Assembly: GCA_946408105.1 (NCBI GenBank)
Contig: CAMJQS010000001.1
Location: forward strand, 4,077-68,076
Length of the DNA: 64,000 nt
DNA from: an uncultured Selenomonadales bacterium
Lineage (GTDB): Bacteria; Bacillota; Negativicutes; Selenomonadales; Selenomonadaceae
Direction: 5' to 3'
Part shown: one piece after another, positions 10,113-53,166 of the stretch
How positions within the stretch are numbered: the first letter of the stretch is position 1
Layout of the letters: every line of letters begins with the position of its first letter
Translations under genes and position numbers: made by a program
The notes under the pieces: model-generated
Seen by the model: only the letters and a program-made list of their open reading frames with translations
Databases searched by the model: none
Told to the model about the DNA's origin: nothing

Positions 10113-10773
10113 CGACTTCGCCCGCCAAAATCAAACCGGCGACACTCGGCACGAAGGCAGCGGAGCCGATAAAATTTTTCACGGGGCGCGGCGTCTCGTC
10201 CGACCAAACGACTTTCAAATTTTTTATGCCGCGCTCTTTTAATTTTTTGCGCAAAATTTTTGCGACGGGGTCGACGGACGTTTGAAAAATATCCGCGACT
10301 TTAAATTTCGTCGGGTCAAGTTTGTTGCCCGCGCCCATGCTCGAAATAATTTTTATCTCGCGGCGCGCGCACTCCTCGACCAAAAAAATTTTCGCCGCCA
10401 ACGTGTCAATCGCGTCGACGACGTAATCGTATCGGCAAATAAAAAAATCCTCGACGTGTTCGTCGGGCAGAAAAAATTTTTGAATCGTATCGACTCGCGC
10501 GGCGGGGTTAATGTCAAAAATTCTCTCGCGCATGACTTCGACTTTTGACTTGTCGACCGTGGACGTGAGCGCGTGAAGTTGTCGGTTGATGTTCGTTTCG
10601 TCGATGTCGTCTTTGTCAATCAAAACCAAATGGCCGACGCCCGAACGAGCCAGAGCCTCGACCGCGAACGAGCCGACGCCGCCCACGCCGAACACCGCGA
10701 CCGTCGCCGCGTTGAGTTTGGAAAAATTTTCTTCGCCGATTAAAATTTTCAGCCGCTGAAATCTGTCGTTCAT
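10051..10773 (-). CDS. tcdA: tRNA threonylcarbamoyladenosine dehydratase (ThiF/E1-like, TcdA/CsdL)
   Basis: MNDRFQRLKILIGEENFSKLNAATVAVFGVGGVGSFAVEALARSGVGHLVLIDKDDIDETNINRQ; start at internal ATG with RBS AAGAGGAA. Confidence 0.8.
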   Translation of the reverse strand: MNDRFQRLKILIGEENFSKLNAATVAVFGVGGVGSFAVEALARSGVGHLVLIDKDDIDETNINRQLHALTSTVDKSKVEVMRERIFDINPAARVDTIQKFFLPDEHVEDFFICRYDYVVDAIDTLAAKIFLVEECARREIKIISSMGAGNKLDPTKFKVADIFQTSVDPVAKILRKKLKERGIKNLKVVWSDETPRPVKNFIGSAAFVPSVAGLILAGEVVKDLTSEVCDRRSASNWSCA

Positions 10774-10917
10774 GAATTCCTCTTTGCAAAAAATTTTTAA
10801 CAACAAACGAAATAATCTCGGCGCGGCGACTGACTAAAAATTTTTGAACACTCGAACGCGTCAGCTGTTCCGCCGCTTTCAAAGCGGCCGCCGATTAAAA
10901 TTTTCAGCCGCTGAAAT
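10734..10917. repeat. Gene-boundary cassette E: 126-bp insert (10763..10888) flanked by perfect 29-bp direct repeats (10734..10762 and 10889..10917)
   Basis: Both copies read cgccgattaaaattttcagccgctgaaat. The left copy is codons 5-14 of tcdA. The right copy follows an ATG that overlaps the ftsZ stop as ATGA. Confidence 0.9.
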
Positions 10918-18780: not shown

Positions 18781-19271
18781 TCCTCCTTGGTCACGAAGTC
18801 CTCAAGCTCTCTGATAAAATCTTCGTGCTCTTCGCCGACGCAAGAAAAAGTTATCCGCCGCATATTTTTTGCGTCCTTTATCCGTTCGATTTTTATCACG
18901 ACGTAATCTTCGGGCAAGGCCTGCGGAAATTTTTCAGCCCACTCGATGAAAACAATTCCGTCGGGAAAATCTATGTACTCGTAAAAGCCGATGTCTTCGA
19001 GCTCGTCCTCGTTGTGCAGGCGGTACAAATCGAAATGAACAATCGGGCAGAAGCCTTCGTAAACGCTCATCAAGTTAAAAGTCGGGCTGGTGACTTCGCC
19101 TTGAACGCCGAGCGTGCGAGCCATCGCCTGAACGAAAAGAGTTTTGCCCGCGCCCAAGCCGCCTTCCAAACAAATGACCGTGCCTTCGCGCACGCGCTGA
19201 GCAACCTTCGACGCCAATTTTACCGTCCCGTATGGGGACTGGGTTATGTGGGTAAACAAAATTTTATTCAC
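18777..19271 (-). CDS. tsaE: tRNA t6A biosynthesis ATPase TsaE (YjeE)
   Basis: ICLEGGLGAGKTLFVQAMARTLGV...SPTFNLMSVY; exact start uncertain (GTG 19271 abuts GAGGAG; in-frame TTG at 19259). Confidence 0.85.
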   Translation of the reverse strand: MNKILFTHITQSPYGTVKLASKVAQRVREGTVICLEGGLGAGKTLFVQAMARTLGVQGEVTSPTFNLMSVYEGFCPIVHFDLYRLHNEDELEDIGFYEYIDFPDGIVFIEWAEKFPQALPEDYVVIKIERIKDAKNMRRITFSCVGEEHEDFIRELEDFVTKED

Positions 19272-19435
19272 TCCTCAAAAAAATTTTCCGTCCGAAATTT
19301 TATTTTAAGCCCCTCCCGCGCCGGAAGGGGCAAAAATTTTTTAGCGATAAGCGCAGTTTATCAGACGCGAAAAATTTTTTCAACACAGAAACTTTTTTTG
19401 TTGCGCGCGTGTGATAGAATACGCGGAGAAATTTT

Positions 19436-20110
19436 TTGGAGATGATAATTTTGAAAGTCGAAGAAATTTTTTTCCGAGATATGTATCACCAAATTTGTTT
19501 GCTCACGGACGCGGCCTTGGCCGGAAAATTTATCGACATGCTGGAAATGGACGACGAGAAACCCGACGGACTTTTGGCTTACGGTTACATTGATAAGGAC
19601 GCGGGCTTCACGTTCAGCATTTTGGGCGGCGCGAAAACTTCGGGCGGCAAGCTGAAAATTTTTCCGATAAACTACAAAGCGGCGGCTGTCGTTCGGCGCG
19701 GCGCAACTGCCGAGGCCGACGTAAAAATTTTGACGGACGATTACGCGCTGGCCTTCCGCGACCGAATGCAAATGATTAACGACACGTACGCCGTCGACGA
19801 CGCAAGAGAGCAGACGCGCTTCATAAAAAATCTCGACGCCTTCCGCCACCCCGATTATCCCGACGATGTTGTCGTTTATTTTTTCCACGCGGAAGACAAG
19901 CCCGAACTTTTGTGGGTGCGCTGCTTGAGCGTCGACGAAAATATTTTGAAGGGCGAACTTTTGAATGAGCCGACGAAAAATTTTGGCTGTCATGCGGGCG
20001 ACAAAATTAAATTCGGCGTCGCGAAAATCGGCGAGCAAAATATTTTGCTCCACCTGCCGACAACGGCGGGCAACGTGACGTTGCATCCAACGGACGCGCT
20101 TGAGCAATAA
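19436..20110 (+). CDS. Hypothetical protein (224 aa)
   Basis: Ordinary amino-acid composition on the + strand, whereas the antisense ORF is Arg-rich; last ~13 codons lie in a repeat-family copy. Confidence 0.6.
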   Translation: MEMIILKVEEIFFRDMYHQICLLTDAALAGKFIDMLEMDDEKPDGLLAYGYIDKDAGFTFSILGGAKTSGGKLKIFPINYKAAAVVRRGATAEADVKILTDDYALAFRDRMQMINDTYAVDDAREQTRFIKNLDAFRHPDYPDDVVVYFFHAEDKPELLWVRCLSVDENILKGELLNEPTKNFGCHAGDKIKFGVAKIGEQNILLHLPTTAGNVTLHPTDALEQ

Positions 20111-20144
20111 AAAATTTTCAGCGAATTTGCCGCGCTCAAACGTT
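20070..20144. repeat. Repeat-family copy A (palindrome GCAACGTGACGTTGC plus ~60-bp tail), inverted relative to copies B and C
   Basis: Aligns by eye with reverse complements of 25263..25337 and 31230..31304. Confidence 0.85.
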
Positions 20145-20171
20145 ATAAAAATTTTTCACGGAGGTAATTTT

Positions 20172-21725
20172 TTGCATAAAAAGCACGCGATAATTATCGG
20201 CGCGGGTCCCGCAGGATTGACGGCCGCTTACTACCTGGCGAAGGACACGAACATCAAGCCGATTGTTTTGGAGAAAGAAAAATTTGTCGGCGGAATTTCT
20301 CGAACGATGAACTTCAACGGCAACCGCATGGACGTCGGCGGCCACAGATTTTTTTCCAAGAACGCCGAAGTCGTCAGGCTGTGGAACGAACTTTTGCCCG
20401 CGCAAGGTGCGCCCGCCCTCGACGATAAAATTTTGCAGCGCGAATCTGTTTTGACGGAAGGCGGCGCGAATCCCGAAGAGGTCGACGAAGTTTTTTTGAA
20501 TCGGCGGCGCGTGTCGAGAATTTTTTATCGGAAAAAATTTTTTTCCTATCCGATTTCGTTGAGCTTGGAGACGATTAAAAATCTCGGACTCGGCGAAATG
20601 TTTTCTATCGGCACGAGTTTTTTAAAAGCAAAATTTTCTCAGCGCGACGAAAAAACTTTGGAAGACTTCATGATTAATCGCTTCGGCCAAAAACTTTACG
20701 AAACTTTTTTCCGCGACTACACGACAAAAGTTTGGGGACGCACGCCAAAAGAAATCGGCGCGGACTGGGGCGCGCAACGAATCAAAGGACTTTCGCTCGG
20801 CAAAACCGTTTTGGATTTTTTCAAAAAAACTTTCGGCTCCAAAGACGGCGCGGGCGAAACTTCTCTGATTGAAAGATTTTTTTATCCGAAGTTCGGCCCC
20901 GGCCAGCTGTGGGAAAAAATGTCCGACGAGATAAAAAAAATGGGCGGCGAGGTTCTCACTTCCGCCAACGTAAAAAGTTTTCGCGTCGTCGACGGCGTTG
21001 TAAAGTTTGCGCGTGTCGAATCGCCCGCCGGTCTTTTGACTTTTCCCGCCGATTATTTTTTGTCGACCATGCCGCTTTCCGAATTGGCGGACGCTCTCGA
21101 CGACGGCTTGAATCTTCGACAGCTGACGATTGCTCGCGGCCTGCCCTATCGTGACTTCATAACCGTCGGGCTGCTCGTCGACAAACTTTTGCTCAAGAAT
21201 CAAACGAAAATTAAAACGCTCGGCAATATCGTTCCCGACTGTTGGATTTACATTCAAGAGCCGTCCGTTAAACTCGGCCGCCTGCAAATTTTTAACAACT
21301 GGTCGCCGTACATGGTTGCCGACCCGAAAAATTCTGTGTGGCTCGGTCTGGAATATTTTTGCAACGAAGGCGACGACCTCTGGCAGATGAGCGACGACGA
21401 TTTTATAAAATTCGCCGCGGACGAGCTCGCCTCGATTGGGATTATCGACGCGGCCGACGTTCGCTTGGGCGTGCGCGCGAAAGTTCCCAAAGCTTACCCC
21501 GCGTACTTCGACACCTACGAAAATATTTCCGAGTTGCGCGACGCGCTCGACGCGATAAAAAATCTTTACTGCATCGGGCGCAACGGTCAGCACCGCTACA
21601 ACAACATGGATCACAGCATGTTGACGGCGATTGCCGCGGTCTGCGCGATTGTCGGGAAATTTCCGAAGGCGGACGTCTGGAAAGTCAACGCGGAAAAAAT
21701 TTATCACGAGGAAAAAAATGACTAA
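20172..21725 (+). CDS. FAD/NAD(P)-binding oxidoreductase (amine-oxidase/UDP-galactopyranose-mutase-like)
   Basis: HAIIIGAGPAGLTAAYYLAK...VLEKEKFVGGISRT dinucleotide fold; TTG start 7 nt after GGAGG. Confidence 0.75.
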   Translation: MHKKHAIIIGAGPAGLTAAYYLAKDTNIKPIVLEKEKFVGGISRTMNFNGNRMDVGGHRFFSKNAEVVRLWNELLPAQGAPALDDKILQRESVLTEGGANPEEVDEVFLNRRRVSRIFYRKKFFSYPISLSLETIKNLGLGEMFSIGTSFLKAKFSQRDEKTLEDFMINRFGQKLYETFFRDYTTKVWGRTPKEIGADWGAQRIKGLSLGKTVLDFFKKTFGSKDGAGETSLIERFFYPKFGPGQLWEKMSDEIKKMGGEVLTSANVKSFRVVDGVVKFARVESPAGLLTFPADYFLSTMPLSELADALDDGLNLRQLTIARGLPYRDFITVGLLVDKLLLKNQTKIKTLGNIVPDCWIYIQEPSVKLGRLQIFNNWSPYMVADPKNSVWLGLEYFCNEGDDLWQMSDDDFIKFAADELASIGIIDAADVRLGVRAKVPKAYPAYFDTYENISELRDALDAIKNLYCIGRNGQHRYNNMDHSMLTAIAAVCAIVGKFPKADVWKVNAEKIYHEEKND

Positions 21726-23340
21726 AAAATTTTTGTTGCCTGTCCAAATAATTTTCTTGTCGGCCGGCGTGATTTATTGGCAAGTTTTTTTCAAGTTCGT
21801 CGAAGAGGCGGACGTGCGCTTCGTCATGAATTTGGGAAAATATATTTTGGAGCACGGCTTCCCGCACGTCGACCCGTTCACGATTCACGAAAATTTACAA
21901 CTCGTGGCGCAGCAGTGGTTAAGCGGAATTTTGTTTTGGGAGGCGTACAAAAATTTCGGCGTCAACGGACTTTTAATCGTCGATATGATTTTCGGGGCGG
22001 CGACGGTTTTAATTTTTTGGCGGCTGTGTCTTTTCGTCAGCAACGGAAATAAAATTTTGTCGTTCGTGTTGAGTTTCGCGGCGGGGCTCCTCTACTCGAT
22101 GATGGTCGTGCCGCGCCCGCACATCATTTCGGCGACGTTGCTTTTGACGGAAGTTTTTTTCTTGGAAAAGTTCACGCGCACCGAAGACGCAAAATTTTTA
22201 ATCCCGCTGCCCGTGTTGAGCGTCGCGCTGATAAATTTTCACGCGGCCATGTGGCTGATGTCGTTGGTCGTTTGCTTGCCGTTCCTTTTCGTGAAAAATT
22301 TTCGCCACATAAAATTTTTGCTCGCCGCCATGCTCGGAATTTTTTTCTGCGGATTTTTAAATCCTTACGGCCTCGACGCGATGACTTACGTTTTGCGCTC
22401 TTACGGTGTCGCTTCGATTAATGCGAACATTCCCGAAATGTTCACGCCGAGTGCACACGGCTTGCAGGGAAAATGTTTTTACGTCGTCGAAACGTTTTTG
22501 ATTTTTTCTTTGGCGCGCGCAAAAAAAATTCCGTGGCGATATATTTTTTTGAGCGGCGGAATAACTTTCATGACGATAATGCACGGGCGCAATTTGGTTC
22601 TGTTTTACTTCCTGGCGACGTTCCCGCTTGCTTACGTGTGGAGAGAATTCACCGCGGAAAAAATTAAACTCGACAAAAAATTTTTGACGGGAATATTTTT
22701 TCTGTTCGTCGCCGCGAATACTTTAATGGTCGTGACCGTCCTGCAAGAAGGTCTCGAAAAAATTTCTGCGCCGTTGGAAATTTTATTTTTTGCGGCGGTG
22801 CTCTTCATGCTGTATGTTTTGCTCGTGCTGAAGGCCGACGGAAGAATTTTTCACCCGACGATTCTCCCGCGAAAAATTTTGTCGTTGCTTGCCACGCTGT
22901 TTGTCGTCAGCGGAATTTTTTTGATGACGATTGCCGCCGACCAAACCAAGCCCGCTCACACCTACACCGACGCGATAAAATTTTTGCTCCGCACCGAACG
23001 CCCCGAAAATATTTCGCTTTACGCTCATCAAGGTATCGGCGGGCTGGCCGGCAGCTTCGGGATAAAATATTATATCGATTCGCGCTCCGAAGTTTTTATT
23101 AAAGAAAACAACGGCCGCAAAAATATTTTCCAAGAGTATTTGGACTTCAAGGACGGCAAAATAAACTACAAAGATTTTTTCGGCCGCTACAACTTCACGC
23201 ACATAATCTTGACGAACGAGGATCCGTTCCTTTTCGATGAGCTGTCGAACGACAAAAATTTTCGCGTGATTTACGAGAGCGAACGCGTCGACGGTTCAAA
23301 CGTTATCCGTTGCAAAGTTTTTGTTCCAAAGAAGGATTGA
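21718..23340 (+). CDS. Large polytopic membrane protein (GT-C/ArnT-like glycosyltransferase suspected)
   Basis: 540 aa, >10 hydrophobic segments; ATG overlaps upstream stop (ATGACTAA). Confidence 0.65.
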   Translation: MTKKFLLPVQIIFLSAGVIYWQVFFKFVEEADVRFVMNLGKYILEHGFPHVDPFTIHENLQLVAQQWLSGILFWEAYKNFGVNGLLIVDMIFGAATVLIFWRLCLFVSNGNKILSFVLSFAAGLLYSMMVVPRPHIISATLLLTEVFFLEKFTRTEDAKFLIPLPVLSVALINFHAAMWLMSLVVCLPFLFVKNFRHIKFLLAAMLGIFFCGFLNPYGLDAMTYVLRSYGVASINANIPEMFTPSAHGLQGKCFYVVETFLIFSLARAKKIPWRYIFLSGGITFMTIMHGRNLVLFYFLATFPLAYVWREFTAEKIKLDKKFLTGIFFLFVAANTLMVVTVLQEGLEKISAPLEILFFAAVLFMLYVLLVLKADGRIFHPTILPRKILSLLATLFVVSGIFLMTIAADQTKPAHTYTDAIKFLLRTERPENISLYAHQGIGGLAGSFGIKYYIDSRSEVFIKENNGRKNIFQEYLDFKDGKINYKDFFGRYNFTHIILTNEDPFLFDELSNDKNFRVIYESERVDGSNVIRCKVFVPKKD

Positions 23341-23341
23341 C

Positions 23342-24451
23342 ATGTTCAAAAAAATTTTGGTGCTGATGATTTTTTTTCTGATGAGCCGAGCCGAGGCGGG
23401 AACTTGGTCGCCCGAATTGCGCGTGGGTTTGATGAGCGACGTTAAGCAAGTCACGTTGGAAGTCTCTGCGCCTTGCGTGATGATTAACGCCGCAAAAGGC
23501 AACGTCGTGAAAAAAATTCCCGCGGGCGAAAAATTTATCGTCGCCTTCAACGAATTAAAATTCAACGCGATTGAAATTCGCCCCGAAAAAATTTCGCTGA
23601 ACGATTTGCGCACGACGATTGACGGCAAAGAATATTACGGCGGCGTGACCGCCAACAAAGAAAAAAATTCTTTGACAATTATAAATCTCGTGCCGATTGA
23701 AGAATATTTGCGCGGCGTGGTGTCGAAGGAAATGTCTCCGTCGTATCCTTTGGAGGCTTTGAAAGCTCAAACGGTGGCGGCTCGTTCGTTCGCGCTGAAA
23801 AATCGCGGGCGGCACGTCAAAGACGGCTACGACGTTTGCGCCTCGACTCACTGCCAAGTTTATATCGGCGTCGCGAAATTTGATTCGGTTGACAAAGCGG
23901 TCGACGAGACGCGCGGCGAAGTTTTGGTTTACAAAGAAAAATTAATCGACACGAACTTTCACGCGGACAGCGGCGGCATGACCGAGGACGTCGGAGACGT
24001 TTGGGGAACAGCCACGCCGTATCTTGTTGCCGTCCGAGAAATTGTTCAGCTTACCGCGCAGCCGTGGACAGTCAAAGTTACCGCGAAAGATTTTTCTTCA
24101 CGCTTCGGAGAAAATTTCGGCGACGTTAAAGAAATTAAGTTGAGCAAGCTGACCGTGGGCAAACCCGCCAACGACAGAACGTCTTCCGGCCGCGTGAAGT
24201 CCGCGCAACTCGTCGGCACGAAAAAAACCGTGACGATTACCGGTAATGACTTGCGCAGAAAATTTTCTTTGCCGAGCACGCTGTTTGATATGAGTTTCGA
24301 CGGCAACGAAATTATTTTTACGGGCTTCGGTCGCGGGCACGGCGTCGGCATGAGCCAAGTCGGCGCGAGAGATTACGCGGGCAGCGGCTGGTCTTACGAA
24401 AAAATTTTGGCGCACTACTACAACGGCTCGAAGCTAAAAAAACTTTACTGA
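23342..24451 (+). CDS. SpoIID/LytB-domain protein
   Basis: Signal peptide, EEYLRGVVSKEMSPSYPLEALKAQTVAARSFAL...CASTHCQVY...NFHADSGGMTEDV. Confidence 0.85.
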   Translation: MFKKILVLMIFFLMSRAEAGTWSPELRVGLMSDVKQVTLEVSAPCVMINAAKGNVVKKIPAGEKFIVAFNELKFNAIEIRPEKISLNDLRTTIDGKEYYGGVTANKEKNSLTIINLVPIEEYLRGVVSKEMSPSYPLEALKAQTVAARSFALKNRGRHVKDGYDVCASTHCQVYIGVAKFDSVDKAVDETRGEVLVYKEKLIDTNFHADSGGMTEDVGDVWGTATPYLVAVREIVQLTAQPWTVKVTAKDFSSRFGENFGDVKEIKLSKLTVGKPANDRTSSGRVKSAQLVGTKKTVTITGNDLRRKFSLPSTLFDMSFDGNEIIFTGFGRGHGVGMSQVGARDYAGSGWSYEKILAHYYNGSKLKKLY

Positions 24452-24461
24452 GGTGAGTGTC

Positions 24462-25259
24462 ATGAAAAAATTTTTCCTGATAATTTTCGTCGCGATTTTC
24501 TTTCTGCCGCTCGGAAAACTTGAGGCGGGACACTTGGAAGATATTTCTTCGCGCGGAACAATCCGAATCGGCACGACGGGCGATTATATCCCGATGTCTT
24601 ATCTCAACCCCGCGACGGGCGAGTACGAGGGAATCGACGCGGAACTTTCAAAAATTATCGCGGCGTCTTTGGGCGTGAAGATTGAATACGTTCCGACGAC
24701 GTGGCCGACGCTCTCCGCCGATTGTCAAGCCAACAAGTTCGACATTGCGCTTTGCGGTATCTCCAGAAATTTTGCGCGGGCGAAGACAATGGCGATGAGC
24801 GACGCTTACGGCGAAGGGCTCTTCGGCAAAACAATTCTCTGCCGCAAGACCGACGCAAAAAAATTTAAAAGCGTTGCCGACCTGAACAAGCCGACCGTCC
24901 GAATCATGATTAACCCCGGCGGCACGAACGAAAAATTTGCCCGCGCCAATCTTCCGAACGCAAAACTTATCGTCCACGAATCCAACGCAGACATCCCGAT
25001 TCAAATCGCCGAGGGCAACGCCGACATCATGATAACAGAGACCGTCGAGGCTGTCAGTTGGGTTAAGCGCGAACCGAGGCTTGCCGCGCCGCTCGTCGAC
25101 AAACCTTTCGAGGGCACGAAACATTCTTGCGGAATTTTGTTGCAGAAGGGCGACCAAGAATTTTTAAACTACGTGAATTTTGTTTTGGCGGAGCTGCGTA
25201 TGAACGGCACGCTTGAAAAGTTGGAAATAAAATATTTGGGACGCAAGCCGGCAAAATAA
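24462..25259 (+). CDS. Periplasmic substrate-binding protein, family 3 (amino-acid/cyclohexadienyl-dehydratase-like)
   Basis: Signal peptide, GTIRIGTTGDYIPMSYLN...GIDAELSKIIAASLGVKIEYVPTTW. Confidence 0.75.
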   Translation: MKKFFLIIFVAIFFLPLGKLEAGHLEDISSRGTIRIGTTGDYIPMSYLNPATGEYEGIDAELSKIIAASLGVKIEYVPTTWPTLSADCQANKFDIALCGISRNFARAKTMAMSDAYGEGLFGKTILCRKTDAKKFKSVADLNKPTVRIMINPGGTNEKFARANLPNAKLIVHESNADIPIQIAEGNADIMITETVEAVSWVKREPRLAAPLVDKPFEGTKHSCGILLQKGDQEFLNYVNFVLAELRMNGTLEKLEIKYLGRKPAK

Positions 25260-25383
25260 TCGACAACATTTAAACGCGGCGAGCGGCTGAAAATTTTTAC
25301 GGCTCAAGCGCGTTCATTGGATGCAACGTCACGTTGCCGGCACGCTTGAGAAATTGGAAACAAAATATTTGGGAAGGAAACCG
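25205..25383. repeat. Gene-boundary cassette B: 87-bp insert (25251..25337) flanked by a 46-bp direct repeat with 6 mismatches (25205..25250 and 25338..25383)
   Basis: cggcacgcttgaaaagttggaaataaaatatttgggacgcaagccg versus cggcacgcttgagaaattggaaacaaaatatttgggaaggaaaccg; insert ends in GCAACGTCACGTTGC (25323..25337). Confidence 0.9.
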
Positions 25384-25384
25384 A

Positions 25385-26413
25385 ATGCTTCTAAGCGACT
25401 TTGATTACGAATTGCCCGAAGAGTTAATCGCGCAACGACCGATTGAGCCGAGAAATTTTTCGCGGCTGATGGTGCTCGACCCTTCGCGGCGAACGATTCA
25501 ACACGAACACTTTTACGACTTGCAAAAATTTTTGACGGCGGGCGACACGCTCATCTTCAACGACACGCGAGTAATTCCCGCACGGCTAATCGGGCACAAG
25601 GCTACGGGCGCGCGCGCAGAAATTTTTTTGCTGCGACGCCTGGACGCCGTGACGTGGGAAACTTTAGTCAAGCCCGGCAGGAAAATCGCGGAAGGCGCAG
25701 AAATTTTTTTTGGCGACGAACTAAGCTGCAAAGTCGTCGGGCGTACAAATTTTGGCGGGCGCGTCGTGGAGTTTAAATTCAACGGCGTCTTTGAAGAAAT
25801 TCTCGACCTCCTCGGCGAAACTCCTTTGCCGCCCTACATCCACGAAAAGCTCGACGACAGCGAACGCTATCAAACCGTTTACAACCGCGAGAGAGGCTCG
25901 GCGGCCGCACCGACTGCGGGGCTTCACTTCACGGCGGAACAAATGCGCGAGCTAAAAAATTTCGGCGTGAACCTCGGCTTCGTGACGTTGCATGTCGGGC
26001 TGGGAACTTTCCGCCCCGTGCAAGTCGAAACGATTGAGCAACACGAAATGCATGAAGAATTTTTTTCCGTGCCGCAGGAGACCGCAGACTTGATTCGCGA
26101 GACAAAAGCGCGCGGGAAAAAAATTGTCGCGGTGGGTACGACTTCAGTCCGAACGCTGGAGGCAGCCGCGCTCGATAAAAAATCTGTGGCAGTCGGCTCA
26201 AGCTCGACGAAAATTTTTATTTATCCCGGCCGCGAATTTAAAATCGTCGACGCGCTGATAACAAACTTTCACCTGCCGAAGTCGACGTTGCTGATGTTGG
26301 TCAGCGCGTTCGCGGGACGAGAATTTATTTTGCAAGCTTATCGCGAGGCGGTCGAACAGCGTTATCGATTCTTTTCTTTCGGCGACGCAATGTTTATCAC
26401 ACACAAAGCTTGA
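25385..26413 (+). CDS. queA: S-adenosylmethionine:tRNA ribosyltransferase-isomerase
   Basis: MLLSDFDYELPEELIAQRPIEPR canonical QueA start, 342 aa. Confidence 0.95.
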   Translation: MLLSDFDYELPEELIAQRPIEPRNFSRLMVLDPSRRTIQHEHFYDLQKFLTAGDTLIFNDTRVIPARLIGHKATGARAEIFLLRRLDAVTWETLVKPGRKIAEGAEIFFGDELSCKVVGRTNFGGRVVEFKFNGVFEEILDLLGETPLPPYIHEKLDDSERYQTVYNRERGSAAAPTAGLHFTAEQMRELKNFGVNLGFVTLHVGLGTFRPVQVETIEQHEMHEEFFSVPQETADLIRETKARGKKIVAVGTTSVRTLEAAALDKKSVAVGSSSTKIFIYPGREFKIVDALITNFHLPKSTLLMLVSAFAGREFILQAYREAVEQRYRFFSFGDAMFITHKA

Positions 26414-26422
26414 AAATTTTAG

Positions 26423-27852
<1,430 letters not shown>

Positions 27853-27866
<14 letters not shown>

Positions 27867-28422
27867 AGCGCGGAAAAAAATTTTGCGTCGAGAATTTTTG
27901 CTCAAGCGTGCGGCGGTTCCTCACGACGAGCGCGACCGAATTTCTCACGCGCTGATAAAAAAATTTTTGGCGACGGAAATTTTTTGCGCGTCAAAAATTA
28001 TCATGGCGTACGCTTCGACGCCCGACGAACTTCAGCTGGAAAAATTTTTCGCCGCGTGCTTCGCCGAAGAAAAAATTTTGGCGATACCGTTCATCGTCGG
28101 CAAAGGCGAAATGCAAGCCGTGCAAGTTCCGAACTTCGACGCGCTGGAGGTCGGAGCGTTTAATATTTTGACAGTCAAGCCCGCGCACAGAAAATTTATT
28201 GCGCCGACGGAAATTGATTGCGTGATTGTTCCGGGCGCGGCCTTCGACGTGAGCGGCGGGCGATTGGGTTTGGGCGGCGGCTACTACGACAGATTTTTGC
28301 CGCTTGCCGTCAACGCAAAAAAAATCGCGCTCGCTTATGACTTTCAGCTCGTCGAAAGTTTGCCGCTTGAGCCGCACGACGCGAAAATCGATTTTGTTTT
28401 TTCGATTGAAGGGAGAATTTAA
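27853..28422 (+). CDS. 5-formyltetrahydrofolate cyclo-ligase
   Basis: ARKKILRREFLLKRAAV...VIVPGAAFDVSGGRLGLGGGYYDRFL; internal ATG, 14-nt overlap with yajC. Confidence 0.8.
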
Positions 28423-28423
28423 A

Positions 28424-29131
28424 ATGAAGTTCACAAAAATTTTTGTCGGCGCGTTGCTTGCGTTGGTTTTGTTCGTGACGCCCGCCGCCGCTCAAAAATC
28501 TGTCGCGCCCGATGACCCGTCGGGCTTCGTTGTTTTGGGCGAATTCATTCCCGACATTATCCAAGAGATTCGCTACTACTCGACTTATAATTTCGTCGGC
28601 GACAGGATTGACGGCTACGAAATGCCCTGCGCGCTCATGACACGCGAGGCCGCCGAGGCTTTGAAAAAAGTTTCCGACGACGTGATGAAGTTGGGCTATC
28701 GTCTAAAAGTTTACGACGCCTATCGTCCGCAAATGGCGGTTAATCATTTCGTGCGCTGGGCGAAGGACACAAAAGACGTTCGCATGAAAAAATATTTTTA
28801 TCCCGAAATCGGCAAGGAGCGTCTCTTTCCCGAAGATTACATCATGGAAAAATCCGGGCACTCGCGCGGCTCGACGATTGACTTGACGCTCTTCGACATG
28901 AAGACCGGCAAGGAAGTCGACATGGGCGGCACGTTCGATTACTTCGGCGAGCTGTCTCATCCCGACTACAAAAAAATTACAAAGCAACAATTCAAAAACA
29001 GAATGATTCTTCGCGACGCGATGGTTAAGCACGGCTTCAAGCCGCTTTACTCGGAGTGGTGGCACTTCACGCTGGAGAACGAGCCGTATCCCGACACGTA
29101 TTTTACTTTCCCCGTCAACGCGCTGAAATAA
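28424..29131 (+). CDS. D-alanyl-D-alanine dipeptidase (VanX/DdpX, peptidase M15D), secreted
   Basis: Signal peptide, EIRYYSTYNFVG...VYDAYRP...SGHSRGSTIDLTL...EWWHFTL. Confidence 0.85.
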   Translation: MKFTKIFVGALLALVLFVTPAAAQKSVAPDDPSGFVVLGEFIPDIIQEIRYYSTYNFVGDRIDGYEMPCALMTREAAEALKKVSDDVMKLGYRLKVYDAYRPQMAVNHFVRWAKDTKDVRMKKYFYPEIGKERLFPEDYIMEKSGHSRGSTIDLTLFDMKTGKEVDMGGTFDYFGELSHPDYKKITKQQFKNRMILRDAMVKHGFKPLYSEWWHFTLENEPYPDTYFTFPVNALK

Positions 29132-29162
29132 AAAAGTCCCGCGCCTTGCGAGACCGTGAAGT

Positions 29163-29522
29163 TTAATTTTTCTTTGCAAAAAGTTTTTCGTAGTTTTCAA
29201 TTTTGTAATCGAGCCGCTCAATCGTCGAACGCAAATGTTCTTCCTGCTTTTGGAGACGCGCCCGTTGCTCGATTAAAATATTTTTCCGACGCTCCACTCC
29301 GGTATTCGCTTGCAAGAGCGTGACGTATTCAATCAACGCTTCGATTTGAACGCCCGCGCTCCTCATGCATTTGACGAACGACACCCAACGGCAAGCCTCT
29401 TCGTCAAAGTTGCGAATGCCGTTTTTGTTGCGCGGCACCGGCGGAATCAATCCGATTCGTTCGTAGTATCTGAGCGTGTCCGCCGTTATCTCGTATTTTT
29501 CGCTGACTTCGCCAATCGTCAT
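29163..29522 (-). CDS. MerR-family regulator, AdhR-like (conserved Cys in KCMR)
   Basis: MTIGEVSEKYEITADTLRYYERIGLIPPVPRNKNGIRNFDEEACRWVSFVKCMRSAGVQIEALIEY; RBS GGAGTG. Confidence 0.85.
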   Translation of the reverse strand: MTIGEVSEKYEITADTLRYYERIGLIPPVPRNKNGIRNFDEEACRWVSFVKCMRSAGVQIEALIEYVTLLQANTGVERRKNILIEQRARLQKQEEHLRSTIERLDYKIENYEKLFAKKN

Positions 29523-29555
29523 AAACATCACTCCGAACAAAAAATTTCCACTGCA

Positions 29556-29586
29556 AGTTTATCAGCTTAAGCCCGCTTTAAGTCAA
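29556..29586 (-). promoter_or_regulatory. MerR-type promoter with 19-bp spacer and dyad
   Basis: Minus strand TTGACT - 19 nt (TAAAGCGGGCTTAAGCTGA) - TAAACT, 27 nt upstream of the merR-like ATG. Confidence 0.55.
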
Positions 29587-29596
29587 GTTCAAATTG

Positions 29597-29707
29597 TTTG
29601 GAAAAAATCTTGCCGCTTTAAAAGCGGCGGAACAGCGGACGCGTTTAACGTTAAAAAATTTTTAGCCGCTCGCCGCGCTCAAACGTTTTGGAAAAAATCT
29701 TGCCGCT
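29597..29707. repeat. Gene-boundary cassette D: 69-bp insert (29618..29686) flanked by perfect 21-bp direct repeats (29597..29617 and 29687..29707)
   Basis: Both copies read tttggaaaaaatcttgccgct; right copy encodes ...RQDFFQ of the nif3-like gene. Confidence 0.9.
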
Positions 29708-30467
29708 CGTCGTCTTCAAAAATTTTTACGTCAAAAGTTTTCAGCTCGTCTCTAAGATATTCGGCAAGCTCGTGAACAATCGGAAACTCCGTGGCGAAGT
29801 GCCCCGCGTCCACGACGTGAATTTCATTTTCGACGGCCGCTTGAGCCTCGTGATATTTTACGTCGCCCGTGACGAACGCCTGCGCTCCGAAAAATTTTGC
29901 GCGCTGAATAAAATCTGCGCCCGCGCCGCCGCACACGCCGACCTTGCCGATTAAAAAATTTCCCGCGTCGACCAGGCGGACGCTTTTGGCGTTCAAAGAT
30001 TTTTTCACGTGGCGGGCAAAATCTTCGGCGGTCATCGGCGTCTCCAAAGTTCCGAGGCGTGCCATCGAAAATTCTTCGTCGCCAAAATTTTTTACGTCGA
30101 CGAGCCCGATTTTTTTTGCAAGCACGTCGTTGACGCCGCCTTGAGCCGTGTCCAAATTCGTGTGCGCCGCGAAGACCGCCAAATTATTTTTTATCAGCCG
30201 CGAAATTTTTTTTCCGAGCGGCAAGTCGAAGCGGACATTTTTTATCGCGTGGAAAATCAGCGGGTGATGCGCGACGATTAGTTGTGCGTCGAGCTCAATC
30301 GCCTTTGAAATTTTTTCGTCGAGTACGTCGAGGCAGACGAAAATTTTTTTTACTTCGGCCGCCGGGTCGCCGAGCAAAAGTCCGGGGTTGTCCCAGTCTT
30401 CGGCAAGTTTTTTCGGAGCCAAACGGTTAATCGCGTCGGCAACAATTTGAACGGTGCATTTCTTCAT
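29679..30467 (-). CDS. Nif3-family dinuclear-metal protein (YbgI/YqfO-like)
   Basis: IADAINRLAPKKLAEDWDNPGLLLGD...LIVAHHPLIF...GHFATE. Confidence 0.85.
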   Translation of the reverse strand: MKKCTVQIVADAINRLAPKKLAEDWDNPGLLLGDPAAEVKKIFVCLDVLDEKISKAIELDAQLIVAHHPLIFHAIKNVRFDLPLGKKISRLIKNNLAVFAAHTNLDTAQGGVNDVLAKKIGLVDVKNFGDEEFSMARLGTLETPMTAEDFARHVKKSLNAKSVRLVDAGNFLIGKVGVCGGAGADFIQRAKFFGAQAFVTGDVKYHEAQAAVENEIHVVDAGHFATEFPIVHELAEYLRDELKTFDVKIFEDDERQDFFQNV

Positions 30468-31228
30468 AAAGTTTCCTCCAAAAATTTAAGCACGTCGTCG
30501 AAATTTTTTGCGAGCTGCGGATAAAAAATTTTCGGGCGGTCAATCATGACGACGGGCAAGTTTAAAATTTTCGCCGCCTCAAGTTTCGTATCCGCGCCGC
30601 CGATTTGCCCGCTGTTTTTCGTGACGACGACTTCGGCCTGTGCGTGTTTGAAAAGTTCGGCGTTGAGTTCGGTCGAGAAGGGTCCTTGCATGGCGACAAT
30701 TTGTTTCGGCAACAAGCCCAAAGCTTCGCACTGACTTAAAACGTCGGCGGTCGGCAAAACGCGCGCGGTCAAGTTGCAACCTTTGAGCAGGTCGACAAAA
30801 ATTTTCAAGCTGCGGCTGCCCGTCGTGAGATAAATATTTTTTCCGAGCTGCGACGCTTTGAGCGCGGCCGCCTCGTAGCTTTCGACGCGGAAAATTTTTT
30901 CGTAGTCAAAAATAATTTCCGCGCGTTCGTAGCGGACGTAAAAAATTTTTGCGGCTTGGGCGGCGGCGATTGCGTTGGCGGAAATATTTTTTGCGTAAGG
31001 GTGGCTGGCGTCGACGAGGAAATTAAATTTTTCTTCGCGCAAAATTTTTTCCAACTCGTCGCGGTCGAGCGGCTTGTCGTTAATCTTGACGGCCGCGCAA
31101 CTCTCCAAAAGTTTTCGTCCGTAATCGCTGACGACAGAGGCCGTCACGTCGAAATTTTTTCCCGACAAAAATTCTGCGAGCCGGCGTCCGTCTTCCGTTC
31201 CCGCGATTAAAAAAATTTTTTTGTTCAT
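30464..31228 (-). CDS. cbiJ: (Cobalt-)precorrin-6A reductase
   Basis: MNKKIFLIAGTEDGRRLAEFL..., 254 aa, ...VVVTKNSGQIGGADTKLEAAKILNLPVVMIDRP. Confidence 0.8.
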   Translation of the reverse strand: MNKKIFLIAGTEDGRRLAEFLSGKNFDVTASVVSDYGRKLLESCAAVKINDKPLDRDELEKILREEKFNFLVDASHPYAKNISANAIAAAQAAKIFYVRYERAEIIFDYEKIFRVESYEAAALKASQLGKNIYLTTGSRSLKIFVDLLKGCNLTARVLPTADVLSQCEALGLLPKQIVAMQGPFSTELNAELFKHAQAEVVVTKNSGQIGGADTKLEAAKILNLPVVMIDRPKIFYPQLAKNFDDVLKFLEETL

Positions 31229-31323
31229 GATAACTCCGAGCGCGGTGAGCGACCGAAAAATTTTTTCGACTCAAGCGCGACCATTGGATGCAACGTCACG
31301 TTGCAAAAATTTTTTTGTTCATG
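31211..31323. repeat. Gene-boundary cassette C: 75-bp insert (31230..31304) flanked by perfect 19-bp direct repeats (31211..31229 and 31305..31323)
   Basis: Both copies read aaaaatttttttgttcatg (reverse complement of the cbiJ start ATGAACAAAAAAATTTTT); insert ends in GCAACGTCACGTTGC (31290..31304). Confidence 0.9.
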
Positions 31324-31412
31324 CGGGCAATTTTAATTCGGCAGAAAAAATTTTTCAAGCGGCGATTTTTTTTTGCGTTTATAGTATAATCGTCGCGGAA
31401 AGGATGAACGCC

Positions 31413-31856
31413 ATGAAAATTTTAGCAAGACAACTGACTTTGGATTTGTACAACTGCGACACGAACCGTCTCGGCAACGTCGACGAGATAAAAAATATTT
31501 TGAGCGGCGTGGTCGGCAGCGAGCCGCGTTTGACTTCCGATTTTATCGACGCGAATCACTGTTCGATTATCGGCGCGTTCGCCGAAGGCCACATCGCCCT
31601 GCACGTCTACAAAGAGCTGCGATACGTTGCGGCGGATATTTTTACTTGCGTCGACTCCGAAGACTCGGAAGAACTTGCGAAGGCGATTAGAAAATTTTTC
31701 CGCCCCGACAAAATCAAATCGACTTTCCTCAAGCGCGGCGACTTCGGACTTGAGCGCGAGATAAAACCAAAAATAAAAGTTCGCGTCGCTCCTCTTCGCA
31801 AAGTGAAAAACGCGGGCGCGAAGGTCGTAAAAAAATTGGTGCGGAGGGGCAAGTAA
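31413..31856 (+). CDS. S-adenosylmethionine-decarboxylase-like protein (SpeD/SpeH family) lacking the self-cleavage serine
   Basis: LDLYNCDTNRL...IIGAFAEGHIALHVYKELRYVAADIFTC resembles ...LAESHISIHTWPE...DIFTCG; basic C-terminal tail. Confidence 0.6.
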   Translation: MKILARQLTLDLYNCDTNRLGNVDEIKNILSGVVGSEPRLTSDFIDANHCSIIGAFAEGHIALHVYKELRYVAADIFTCVDSEDSEELAKAIRKFFRPDKIKSTFLKRGDFGLEREIKPKIKVRVAPLRKVKNAGAKVVKKLVRRGK

Positions 31857-33890
31857 ATGACTTTTACTCACGCGGCGAACCTTTATCGTTCCGTCGGCAA
31901 ATCCAAAAAGTGCACGTTTATTTTTTGTTCAGACCACGGCGTCGCCAAAGAAAATGTCAGCGCATACCCGCAGGCCACGACAGCCGACATGGTTAAAAAT
32001 TATTTGGTCGACGGTGGAGCCGCCGCCAACGCTTTTGCGAAGTTCGCTTACTCCGAGCTTTACGTCGTGGACGTGGGCGTCGACGCGGACGTTTCAAATT
32101 TGCCCGGGCTCGTCGACAGAAAAATTTCGCGCGGCACGAAAAATATTTCCGAAGAACCCGCCATGACTTTTGAACAGGCAATGCAATCCGTTCGCGTCGG
32201 AAAAAAATTGGCGGAAGAAGCAATCGACGCGGGTTGCAACTGTTTTCTTATCGGCGAAATGGGAATCGGCAACACGACGACCGCCGCCGCAATGACCGCC
32301 GCTTATCTGAACTTGTCGCCCGAAGAAGTCACGGGGCGCGGCTCGAATGTCGACGACGAAAAATTTTTGCACAAGATTGAAATCGTTCGACGCGCTCTCG
32401 TACGCAACGGCCCCAATCGAAACAGTTTGCTCGACGTGCTCACGAAGGTCGGCGGCTACGAATTCGGAGCAATGGCAGGCGTGATTATCGCGGCTTATCA
32501 TCACGGCTGCGTTGTCATTCTCGACGGATTCAACACGGCGGTTGCCGCGCTCGTCGCCGAAGAAATTTTGCCGCAATCGATTGACTGCCTCATTGCCTCT
32601 CACGTCGGCCGCGAAGTCGGACACAAAAAAATTTTGGATTACCTCGACTTGCAACCGATTTTTAATCTTGACCTTGCGTTGGGCGAAGCTGTCGGTTCGT
32701 CAATCGCCGCGCGCGTCTTGGACAATCTGGTTTACATTTTTGTTTGCCCGCCCGACGCCGATTTTGAAGGCGACCTTTTCCAAGAGGACAGAGCGTTGGA
32801 AAATTTTAAAAAGCAGCTCGGCTTGGACGGCGTGGAAGGCCTCGACACGATTGAAGACGTTCAAGAATTTTTGGGCGACGAAATTCAGATTGAAGAAATT
32901 CCGCTCGACTTCCACGTCAGCGAACACCGTATGGAAAGCGTCGAAGTTCCCTTCAGCACGCACACTTCAAACATCCCGCGCGCCTACCCGATGAACGTCC
33001 GCATTATGGGCGAAGACAAAGAAGAACTTATCGCCGCGACGGACAGAACTTTTAATTTTTATTTGCAGACGATGCCGCGCCTCCACGACCGCCCGATGAA
33101 TAATTGCCGCGAACTTTTGGACAGCCTGACCAAACCCAAACGCAGTCTCGGTTACCTGGAGGAAATCGCCGTGCAAGTCGCGGGCATTGCCAACGAAGAC
33201 TGCCCGACGAATAAACTTCGACACGCCGCGTTGGCTTTTGCAAACTTTGAAAATTGTCCGTCGCTCGTCGACCCCGAACACTACGACCGCACAGCAGAGG
33301 GCGCACGCCGCGATTTGTCCACGGACTTCAGCGCGACGGTTCGCACGTTCGGCATGAAAGTTTTTTTGGGCGTCGTCGACCCCGAAGAAAATATTAACGT
33401 CGCGTTCAATTACGGGCGCAACATTGCCGAGGAAATTACTTTCGACACGCCGATACTTGCCGTCACGGATTTGGGGCATCTTTTGGAAGACAAGCTCGCC
33501 GAAAAATTTTCCGAAGCTCTGTTGACGGAAGACGGCGAATTAAAATTTCCGCCCGAAGAATTTTTGCGCCACGTCCCGAAAGATTGTCGGTGCATGGCGG
33601 GCGCGATTATCGGCGCGTTGGTGGCCGCCGCCCACAACTCAACTTTAATCGTCGTCGACACCGGCGCGATTGAAATCATCACGCGCTACTTGGAAAAAAT
33701 TTGTCCCGAAATTCGCCCGTTCATTCTCCATTCCGCCGCGCTGATTAAATACAAAAACGAAGACGGCACTCCACTCGGCCTGGACGGCGAGGCGGCTTGT
33801 ATCGGCGTCGAGATTGTCGAGGCGGCGTTGATTGCTTTGAACGAGATGAAAACTTTCGACGAGACGGGCGTGAAGAAAGCGATAAGATGA
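31857..33890 (+). CDS. cobT: Fused double CobT-like protein (nicotinate-nucleotide:base phosphoribosyltransferase family, ArsAB-like)
   Basis: First half: FCSDHGV, GEMGIGNTTTAAAM, VILDGFNTAVAAL, LALGEAVGSS. Second half: LTKPKRSLGYLEEIAVQVAGI ... LGLDGEAACIG ... NEMKTF. Confidence 0.7.
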   Translation: MTFTHAANLYRSVGKSKKCTFIFCSDHGVAKENVSAYPQATTADMVKNYLVDGGAAANAFAKFAYSELYVVDVGVDADVSNLPGLVDRKISRGTKNISEEPAMTFEQAMQSVRVGKKLAEEAIDAGCNCFLIGEMGIGNTTTAAAMTAAYLNLSPEEVTGRGSNVDDEKFLHKIEIVRRALVRNGPNRNSLLDVLTKVGGYEFGAMAGVIIAAYHHGCVVILDGFNTAVAALVAEEILPQSIDCLIASHVGREVGHKKILDYLDLQPIFNLDLALGEAVGSSIAARVLDNLVYIFVCPPDADFEGDLFQEDRALENFKKQLGLDGVEGLDTIEDVQEFLGDEIQIEEIPLDFHVSEHRMESVEVPFSTHTSNIPRAYPMNVRIMGEDKEELIAATDRTFNFYLQTMPRLHDRPMNNCRELLDSLTKPKRSLGYLEEIAVQVAGIANEDCPTNKLRHAALAFANFENCPSLVDPEHYDRTAEGARRDLSTDFSATVRTFGMKVFLGVVDPEENINVAFNYGRNIAEEITFDTPILAVTDLGHLLEDKLAEKFSEALLTEDGELKFPPEEFLRHVPKDCRCMAGAIIGALVAAAHNSTLIVVDTGAIEIITRYLEKICPEIRPFILHSAALIKYKNEDGTPLGLDGEAACIGVEIVEAALIALNEMKTFDETGVKKAIR

Positions 33891-45621: not shown

Positions 45622-45800
45622 CGGTCGTCTCCTTTTTATGTGTTTGTATTCTACTTTTTCTTTGCGCGCCCTTTTTAGCTGTTAGCTGTCAGCTGTTAGT
45701 AATTAGAAAATCGAACAGCTTTAAACTAACAGCTATCAGCTAAACATGACGGCCTCTGATTACGCGGCGCGGTCTTCTTCATCGGTCGTCTCCTTTTTAT
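45617..45800. repeat. Gene-boundary cassette F: 138-bp insert (45640..45777) flanked by perfect 23-bp direct repeats (45617..45639 and 45778..45800)
   Basis: Both copies read ttcatcggtcgtctcctttttat. The left copy is the RBS plus ATG of the DegT gene. The right copy encodes ...KKETTDEE of the M48 gene. Confidence 0.9.
45677..45746. repeat. Hairpin built from heptanucleotide repeats: (AGCTGTT/AGCTGTC)x3 facing (CTAACAG/CTATCAG)x2-3
   Basis: Read directly; the arms are reverse complements of each other and of the array at 3564..3593. Confidence 0.85.
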
Positions 45801-52907: not shown

Positions 52908-52953
52908 TTTAATCTGTCTCCTTTTGTAAGGTGTTGAAATTTTTTTCCTGTTT

Positions 52954-52982
52954 ATTATACGTCAGCCGGAGGATTTTGTTAC
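52954..52982 (-). promoter_or_regulatory. Promoter P1 of the GG-leader gene
   Basis: Minus strand GTAACA - 17 nt - TATAAT. Confidence 0.55.
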
Positions 52983-53047
52983 AGCTTTGAAAAAAATTTT
53001 TTCGGCTCGCGGCGTCGGAAGATGTCTTTTAAAATTTTGTTCGTCAT
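52979..53047 (-). other. 22-codon relic ORF MTNKILKDIFRRREPKKFFSKL, a duplicated and truncated 5' end of the GG-leader gene
   Basis: Preceded by AAAGGAGGC and a second promoter copy; first 8 codons parallel MAKEILKD; stop codon lies in the -35 of P1. Confidence 0.5.
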
Positions 53048-53092
53048 TTTAATTTGCCTCCTTTGTCTTTGCTTGAATTTTTCTTTCTGCGT

Positions 53093-53121
53093 CTTATACG
53101 TTCGCCGAAGAATTTTGTTAC
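53093..53121 (-). promoter_or_regulatory. Promoter P2, a duplicate of P1
   Basis: Minus strand GTAACA - 17 nt - TATAAG, same spacing and flanks as P1, 140 bp upstream. Confidence 0.5.
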
Positions 53122-53166
53122 ACGCTGGAAAAAAATTTTCCTCCGACTTTTGCCGAAGGAAATTTT

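Follow-up and report, generated by a model that had tools for sequence, protein, structure and literature searches.

The 64,000-nt stretch analysed here (the window; positions 4,077 to 68,076 of contig CAMJQS010000001.1, assembly GCA_946408105.1, from an uncultured Selenomonadales bacterium) contains, upstream of queA, the gene of a substrate-binding protein (SBP) whose 3′ end is present twice, the two copies being separated by a short insert that ends in a hairpin. The repeat pair and its insert are together called cassette B. The source genome (G000) is a metagenome-assembled genome (MAG) of 1.85 Mb that is 61% complete and comprises 232 contigs. The features of the junction, in window coordinates, are as follows (SD, Shine-Dalgarno):

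24453..25259, + strand: SBP gene (SBP_bac_3, 268 aa; Pfam PF00497, E 8.8e-29); the last two codons and the stop, GCA AAA TAA (25251-25259), lie past the left repeat
25205..25250, + strand: left copy of the 46-nt duplication, read here as a target duplication; coding 3′ end of the SBP gene, SD motif lost (GGGACGCAAGCCG)
25251..25273, + strand: variable 5′ leader of the insert (GCAAAATAATCGACAACATTTAA), 23 nt, which provides the new SBP stop codon
25274..25318, + strand: repeat-family scaffold, with invariant ACGCGG (25274-25279), ~30 variable nt, invariant CGCG (25309-25312) and a 6-nt linker
25319..25337, + strand: terminal 19-mer GGATGCAACGTCACGTTGC, a GGAT tag followed by a 6-bp stem with a 3-nt loop; exact 3′ end of the element
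25338..25383, + strand: right copy of the duplication, now non-coding, which retains the queA SD motif GGAAGGAA (25372-25379)
25385..26413, + strand: queA (S-adenosylmethionine:tRNA ribosyltransferase-isomerase; Pfam PF02547, E 2.9e-139), with tgt (PF01702) next
25402..25404, + strand: relic stop of the ancestral overlapping SBP frame (…KPNASKRL-stop), the same frame and stop being used in genomes G018 and G014

A repeat search of the window aligned 25205-25250 with 25338-25383 at 87% identity (6 mismatches, 133-nt spacing), confirming the duplication of the SBP gene end that the initial annotation had proposed. The 87 nt between the copies (25251-25337) end in a 15-nt palindrome, GCAACGTCACGTTGC, at 25323-25337, which adjoins the right copy; this placement, also described earlier, holds here and is a family-wide rule. 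The palindrome recurs at 20070 (minus orientation) and 31290 of the window, in which it has eight matches at ≤2 mismatches versus 0.29 expected from shuffles. Similarity of the left and right flanks beyond the 46 nt is not significant, and a longer duplication was rejected, as 274 of 2000 shuffles match the score of the extended flanks. The queA N-terminus aligns from residue 1 at the ATG at 25385 in 10 relatives, and the sole SD-like motif before this ATG is GGAAGGAA, 6 nt upstream, so the earlier statement that only the downstream copy offers a ribosome-binding site stands. When the SBP frame is read through the right copy, the translation of 25339-25404 is GTLEKLETKYLGRKPNASKRL followed by TGA at 25402-25404, i.e. 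20 nt inside queA, again as first described.

The same structure is present in independent public assemblies: a contig from RNA run X1 covers 25213-25559 and a contig from run X2 covers 25227-25391, each in one piece, and it is therefore not an artefact of the present assembly. In run X2, cassette B is also represented by a variant whose variable element part is longer by 7 nt (GGCTGAA, inserted at window 25289). One metatranscriptome contig links the SBP end, across the insert, to queA, which is compatible with co-transcription, carry-over of DNA being the alternative.

Orthologous SBP loci were taken from 19 related genomes (18 genus mates and G040), and the SBP–queA junction was read in 10 of them. 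The SBP orthologues of the genus mates are 84-90% identical over residues 3-266, and the tail that follows …YLGRKP differs among relatives. In G018 and G014, which are two species of the same genus as the source genome, there is no insert, and the SBP continues as …KYLGRKPNATKRL to a stop 20 nt inside queA (junction DNA …GGAAGGAAACCTAATGC(T/G)ACTAAGCGA(C/T)TTTGA, protein end KPNATKRL-stop); this is exactly the overlap that had been reconstructed as the ancestral junction. G023, G020, and G001 are also insert-free, with an SBP that overlaps queA by a shorter stretch, and G012, G016, G017, and G015 have a short SBP tail (…AAATAA/AGTAA) that ends just before the queA ATG or overlaps it. The tails of G012, G017, and G015 (loci L003, L011, and L007 are named alongside) read …AAATAATG/AGTAATG and are similar to that of G016; these four tails may have been left behind by elements since lost, or may represent another ancestral allele. 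The 46-nt stretch occurs once only in each of these nine genomes. An empty-site allele with exactly one 46-nt stretch was also found in a metagenome contig from a relative (run X4), in which 25207 is joined to 25363 via 22 nt. As the stretch is single in insert-free relatives, the duplication is derived, and the insert lies in a once-continuous sequence that served two purposes.

The right copy has kept the conserved SD motif GGAAGGAAA, which is also conserved in the empty sites of G018, G014, G012, G016, and G023. The SBP has lost seven codons (NASKRL and the stop inside queA) and gained AK and a stop, a change that is probably neutral because the tail varies among relatives. From the layout of the junction, translational coupling between SBP and queA is predicted to be broken, with the SD kept at a spacing of 6 nt.

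The insert is one copy of a dispersed repeat, whose terminal 19-mer GGATGCAACGTCACGTTGC occurs 25 times in the source genome. In Selenomonadaceae the element has a core of 64-67 nt that begins with RCGCGG, continues through ~30 nt of variable sequence but constrained length to CGCG, and ends with a 6-nt linker and the 19-mer. In cassette B this core, RCGCGG-N~30-CGCG-N6-GGATGCAACGTCACGTTGC, takes up 64 nt (25274-25337) behind the 23-nt leader; the leaders of other copies are variable, from 1 to 50 nt. Alignment of 42 copies shows CGCGG and CGCG without variation, and an interior that varies in sequence within a constrained length. The predicted fold pairs CGCGG with CGCG, and it involves only invariant pairs with no measurable covariation. 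A stem that ends directly before the 19-mer is weakly enriched (89 of 172 copies versus 63 of 159 controls), and the GGAT tag is present in all copies. The ends of the element, 5′ RCGCGG and 3′ CGTTGC, do not form an inverted-repeat pair. The orientation of the element relative to genes has a weak bias. In the 87-nt, non-coding insert of cassette B no promoter-like or terminator-like site was found. Rfam 15 gave no overlap with any copy at E ≤ 1 in window 19000-32500, nor at E ≤ 0.1 in seven loci from four phyla, and the hairpin sequence had no match in the searchable literature. The GGATG at the start of the 19-mer (window 25319-25337) is a recognition site of type IIS enzymes (FokI 9/13, StsI 10/14), and a 14-nt reach from it would end exactly at the joint between element and target; this may be a coincidence.

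The source genome belongs to a Quinella-like genus of rumen Selenomonadaceae. The same scaffold is carried by Quinella MAGs and, with another terminal hairpin, GCCGCTTT(C/T)AAAGCGGC, by a second subfamily in the source genome (window 10763-10888 and 29618-29686), which lacks GGATG. At positions 1-500 of contig C169, upstream of fumarate hydratase genes, GCAACGTCACGTTGC and GCCGCTTTCAAAGCGGC hairpins alternate in a tandem array with a 190-nt period, a mosaic resembling those of bacterial interspersed mosaic elements (BIMEs). Further diverged direct-repeat pairs, of 46 and 67 nt, surround other hairpin-bearing inserts at window 45614-45820 and 52934-53139; the insert of the former ends in …CGGCCTCTGATTACGCGGCGCGGTC, and the motif CGGCCTCAAAGTTCGCGGCG also follows many copies of the 19-mer in the source genome.

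The position of the duplication relative to the hairpin follows an exact rule across the family. A direct repeat starting at the first base after the 19-mer (+1) and recurring 0-350 nt upstream accompanies ~55 of 152 copies taken from many taxa, and in G010 about half of 30 sampled copies have such a +1 repeat; overall, +1 repeats of 15-150 nt go with ~40% of copies. In the source genome, a repeat with a score of at least 14 is located exactly at +1 in 7 of 22 scorable copies, compared with 0.8% of 3000 random positions, which excludes chance as the source of the repeat at the hairpin. Removal of redundancy and array-internal units left 52 repeat pairs with a repeat length of 15-150 nt (median near 38), so the second joint is variable. 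The first duplicated base is C in 46 of the 52, +2 is G or C in 41, and +4 is C in 29; at the other boundary of the duplication the same pairs have no base preference. The joint lacks microhomology, as only 10 of 52 pairs have the same base before the left copy as at the end of the hairpin. Repeats are long in Selenomonadales, Clostridia, and one Planctomycete; as read from the flanks, fusobacterial copies lie in T-runs with repeats of ~6-8 nt, and phage copies have repeats of 0-5 nt. Tandem arrays of the unit X + element, where X is the duplicated stretch, occur frequently, as unequal exchange between long repeats would predict.

Five of the six mismatches between the copies in cassette B are synonymous in the SBP frame (GAA/GAG, AAG/AAA, CGC/AGG, which comprises two changes, and AAG/AAA), and the sixth is ATA/ACA. 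The changes AGG to CGC and AAA to AAG are located in the left, coding copy, where they removed the SD, and are derived with respect to 6 of 9 insert-free relatives; polarised in the same way, ATA to ACA arose in the right, non-coding copy. In the left copies of G010, AGG is likewise replaced, by CGA, so the SD is lost from the left copies of both genomes. This pattern can be read as subfunctionalisation, in which the coding copy, relieved of its role for queA, would have dropped the internal SD and the rare AGG codon, and the right copy would have kept the SD.

Across 28 duplications that cover a gene 3′ end, 50 of 63 mismatches are at third codon positions, 7 at first positions, and 6 at second positions; the third-position share is thus 79%, versus ~46% estimated for a non-coding copy that drifted freely. 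Because of this excess, mismatch counts are no neutral clock. The most economical explanations of the bias would be that either copy recombined with empty-site alleles from strains living alongside, or that the copies underwent gene conversion while selection acted on the coding one. Two other ideas about the copies were rejected. Translation of the right copy from the ATG in GGATGC would be in frame here, but it is in frame in 8 of 28 cases family-wide, which is the chance level; the template and variable repeats of a diversity-generating retroelement do not apply, as the mismatches are not adenine-specific.

One relative, G010, which is another species, has an insert at the same left junction (locus L006, minus strand, ~1180-1560; …CCG|CGCAAATAATCGG… versus …CCG|GCAAAATAATCGA…). 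Its SBP–queA region consists of two units of a 58-nt repeat plus a 104-nt element, followed by a third repeat; the right repeat begins 12 nt further upstream than that of cassette B, and the interior of the element is of the G010 type. In a tree of 3.8 kb of local sequence, G010 clusters with the insert-free G020, G023, and G017, not with G000. The distribution fits an old insert allele that was repeatedly lost, with G016 keeping a footprint, but also an allele transferred between species via homologous recombination, or a junction that is a hot spot and was hit twice. The initial annotation had judged cassette B to be older than the other insertions on account of its mismatches. A greater age is plausible in view of the G010 insert at the same left junction; the argument from mismatches does not hold, given their synonymous character and third-position excess.

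Within the genus, the 19-mer is present in 0-120 copies in each of 24 genomes, 11 of which have none, and it was found in none of 16 other families of the class. Exact matches occur in >119 reference-genome stretches from at least six phyla. The hosts among the matches listed are Selenomonadaceae, Oscillospiraceae, Christensenellaceae, other Clostridia, Fusobacteriaceae, Chthoniobacterales/Verrucomicrobiota, Methylacidiphilaceae, Planctomycetota, and one alphaproteobacterial MAG; cultured or single-organism hosts among them are Propionigenium maris DSM 9537, Lachnoclostridium MSJ-17, Oscillospiraceae 42-9, and Verrucomicrobia LW23. With up to two mismatches allowed, P. maris has 92 copies; three MAGs, one each from Oscillospiraceae, Selenomonadales, and Methylacidiphilaceae, have 94, 66, and 38, respectively, and reversed-pattern controls gave zero. 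The copies are dispersed, extragenic, and located at gene ends, with 13-120 per genome, and the sequence outside the 19-mer varies between lineages.

The 19-mer is also present in 42 IMG/VR phage contigs, mostly as an insert of ~20-25 nt at gene junctions. In many of these contigs it lies between a stop codon (TCA/TTA at +1 to +3, on the opposite strand) and the next start, and in phage loci L184 and L211 it is within an open frame (…AAFGQRDVASNCEADG…). The fusobacterial version (P. maris loci L050, L065, and L123; Fusobacteriaceae loci L102 and L104) is ~95 nt long, with an internal hairpin, the 19-mer, and then a T-run, and contains a −35/−10-like pair (TTGTTA, 16 nt, TATAAA/TATTAA). It looks like a small promoter-to-terminator RNA unit placed in terminator T-tracts with repeats of ~6-8 nt. 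At several loci the 3′ end of the 19-mer adjoins the first base of a tRNA, i.e. a tRNA-Leu-like gene (C5:22958-22976) and a tRNA-Phe-like gene (L067), with one extra base at C232:2204-2222; in the opposite orientation it adjoins the CCA end of a tRNA (the tRNA-boundary loci listed are L067, L043, and L111). The element thus lands exactly on the boundaries of RNA genes as well as on stop and start codons.

We consider it highly probable that cassette B records one insertion of a small, gene-less, hairpin-headed repeat into a formerly overlapping SBP/queA junction, accompanied by a 46-bp target duplication, and we infer that one event produced both the duplication and the insertion. The 3′ end of the hairpin would have been joined exactly before the target C (CGGCAC…), the other joint would have been made 46 bp downstream, and the stretch between the joints would have ended up on both sides of the insert. 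SBP and queA would both have survived because this stretch held the SBP 3′ end together with the queA ribosome-binding site. The copies would then have split their jobs, the left one staying coding and losing the SD synonymously, and the right one keeping the SD and losing its reading-frame context. These joints suggest a chemistry in which one strand is joined at the hairpin 3′ end with a sequence preference, a second joint is made without specificity at a variable, host-determined distance, and fill-in completes the insertion; the joining agent could be a trans-acting enzyme or the host replication/repair machinery. Taken alone, cassette B is an ordinary, well-resolved insertion scar.

An element-specific enzyme would be dispensable if, during replication or break repair, a nascent strand had left its template for a copy present elsewhere, been extended along that copy as far as the hairpin, at which synthesis aborts, and resumed on the original template at an upstream point, so that 46 nt were copied again, in a copy-choice process resembling fork stalling and template switching (FoSTeS). 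Such a process would agree with the fact that no transposase or reverse transcriptase (RT) class tracks copy number, with the varying 5′ ends and leaders, and with the presence in the source genome of several unrelated hairpin families that have the same long, variable duplications. It would also agree with duplications whose length follows the host lineage, being long in Selenomonadales and Clostridia but ~6-8 nt, or missing, in Fusobacteria and phage contigs. However, microhomology is lacking at the hairpin/target joint (10/52), the C at +1 (46/52) and the exactness of the joint look enzymatic, and the preservation of an exact 19-mer across phyla is hard to explain without a sequence-specific partner. 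We therefore regard template switching as unlikely, although it deserves to be kept in mind.

Two separate events, in which the repeat was inserted without duplication, severing queA from its ribosome-binding site, and the SBP end was later duplicated and selected for restoring queA translation, are very improbable. The right copy has the only SD, so such selection is conceivable, but the +1 geometry recurs in dozens of copies, including sites with nothing to restore and perfect young repeats, and an independent second duplication would not end exactly at the hairpin every time. It is barely credible that the 46-nt repeats are attL and attR of a site-specific integrating element that brought its own SBP 3′ end and was mostly deleted, leaving 87 nt. 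The mostly synonymous differences between the copies would suit a coding end that had evolved elsewhere, but there is no integrase near the 87-nt insert, tandem arrays of X + element exist, and the insert family lies between unrelated 15-150-nt repeats at dozens of loci, which would be impossible for a site-specific recombinase. Equally far-fetched is an artefact of metagenome assembly, in which variant SBP ends from different strains were strung together around a repeated k-mer: the incomplete, fragmented source MAG and the allelic (synonymous) look of the differences would allow it, but the copies differ within every 31-mer-sized stretch, and contigs from independent runs, built with a different assembler, hold the left variants, the insert, the right variants, and the queA start in one piece, so the hairpin/X and X/leader junctions must exist in the reads.

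Several observations weigh against a single insertion with target duplication, which we nevertheless prefer. None of six enzyme classes tracks the copy number of the 19-mer, and there is no conserved neighbouring open reading frame (ORF): when ORFs of at least 120 aa within 3.5 kb of 152 copies were clustered, no family was found at a fixed position. The right junction in G010 is offset by 12 nt and G010 is not sister to G000, so a single origin of the two inserts does not follow from the comparison. The 5′ boundary of the insert is not sharp, since the 9 nt that open the G000 insert (GCAAAATAA) also end the SBP gene in the insert-free G016 (locus L005, 2280-2300, which ends with CCTGCAAAATAA); because of this identity, the left boundary and the type of the ancestral allele are not fully settled. 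The ancestral allele may differ, or the right copy may have been replaced by recombination. Finally, every case of a long duplication comes from short-read MAGs, and the cultured carriers P. maris and Lachnoclostridium MSJ-17 have short flanking repeats or none.

The comparison of enzyme families with copy number covered RVT_1, Y1_Tnp, DDE_Tnp_1, rve, DEDD_Tnp_IS110, and TnpB in up to 25 genomes. RT (PF00078) is absent from G000, G010, G015, G017, G014, G022, G044, and G049, despite 20-120 copies, and from six of the seven richest genomes of the genus. Y1_Tnp (PF01797) is absent from G000, G010, G015, G017, G020, G022, G045, G047, and G049; the Y1 genes of P. maris belong to ordinary IS200-like units with no 19-mer within 1.5 kb, and the Y1 loci of G046 and G042 are likewise without it. 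DDE_Tnp_1 and rve had no match in G020 (36 copies) and none above the cut-off in G015 (32 copies), and G013 contains eight DDE genes and no 19-mer. IS110 DEDD and TnpB are both absent from P. maris, G044, G045, G047, and G049. The incompleteness of MAGs weakens any single absence, but the genomes include G015, with a completeness rating of 100%, and the isolate P. maris. An autonomous parent element was rejected, as no recurrent ORF family was found near the 152 copies, and a 4.7-kb 'long' pair (L086) was rejected as a parent because it consists of two separate copies, each followed by the same sequence.

The 19-mer GGATGCAACGTCACGTTGC may, as we tentatively suggest and with considerable reserve, be the cis-acting head of an undescribed DNA-insertion pathway common to distant phyla and phages. 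This pathway would make a precise joint 5′ of a target pyrimidine (C 88%) and a second joint at a host-dependent distance (duplications of 0 to ~150 bp), and would use no known RT, Y1/RAYT, IS4-type DDE, rve, IS110, or TnpB enzyme. If an enzyme or a repair pathway were tied to the 19-mer, it would constitute a new mode of DNA insertion and explain many duplications of gene ends in compact genomes. Propionigenium maris DSM 9537, a cultured host in which the 19-mer is present 92 times, would allow the proposed pathway to be tested.

The locus itself is a clean natural experiment, in which a dual-purpose stretch (SBP C-terminus and queA ribosome-binding site) was duplicated and its purposes were divided, and it illustrates a way for mobile DNA to invade overlapping genes with coupled translation while both of them survive. 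The spread of hairpin repeats resembling repetitive extragenic palindromic (REP) sequences is an old open question, to which the family adds an exact end, a base preference, and long, variable duplications, in a hairpin that is identical from Fusobacteria to Verrucomicrobia and in phage contigs.

As far as we found, the repeat family is unusual and undescribed; it is of the REP/MITE-like kind (MITE, miniature inverted-repeat transposable element), with a mechanism that the known enzyme classes tested do not explain. Like classical MITEs (Correia/NEMIS, RUP, and ERIC), it is small, non-coding, dispersed, and located beside genes, where it can supply or separate expression signals. Unlike it, MITEs are bounded by terminal inverted repeats, produce a short duplication of fixed length, and have a parent insertion sequence (IS); none of these features was found here. 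Target-primed reverse transcription of long and short interspersed nuclear elements (LINEs and SINEs) yields an exact 3′ end, a variable 5′ end, variable duplications, and a preferred motif at the start of the duplication by the 3′ end of the element. The present family shares the exact 3′ end, the variable 5′ end, the variable-length duplication, and the preferred motif, but copy-rich hosts have no RT, and there is neither poly(A) nor microhomology.

Long, variable target duplications are also produced by two Mycoplasma elements, which demonstrate that DDE transposition can yield them: IS1630 has variable duplications of 19-26 bp, as cited in PMC2853133, and a title cited in the literature for IS1634 names 'long, variable-length direct repeats'. 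Both are autonomous, with a DDE transposase and inverted terminal repeats, whereas the present repeat has neither a transposase gene nor terminal inverted repeats. With REP, BIME, and REPIN sequences the family shares a short GC-rich palindrome after an unpaired tetranucleotide tag, high copy number, location at gene ends, mosaic arrays (C169:1-500), and occurrence in several phyla. However, REP/REPIN sequences have a GTAG or CGTC tag and RAYT Y1 transposases (PMC3733652), whereas the tag here is GGAT and no RAYT gene tracks the copies or is flanked by the 19-mer. REP sequences are species-specific and the present 19-mer is identical across phyla; the REP survey (PMC3733652) makes no mention of target duplications.

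A close parallel to the duplication in cassette B is found in restriction-modification insertions with long target duplication, in which direct repeats of >30 bp and of variable length are single in the related empty site (Nobusato 2000; Furuta, Abe and Kobayashi 2010, PMC2853133). In those insertions the repeats often span start or stop codons, the target gene is intact, no mobility gene is linked, and tandem amplification is known (PMC2853133). Cassette B likewise has repeats of >30 bp that occur once at empty sites, with variable length in the family and no linked mobility gene. Those insertions are, however, kilobase-sized restriction-modification genes inserted in single events, whereas the present element is a non-coding hairpin repeat of 45-110 nt that occurs in tens to ~100 copies, with one exact end and a preference for the target base.

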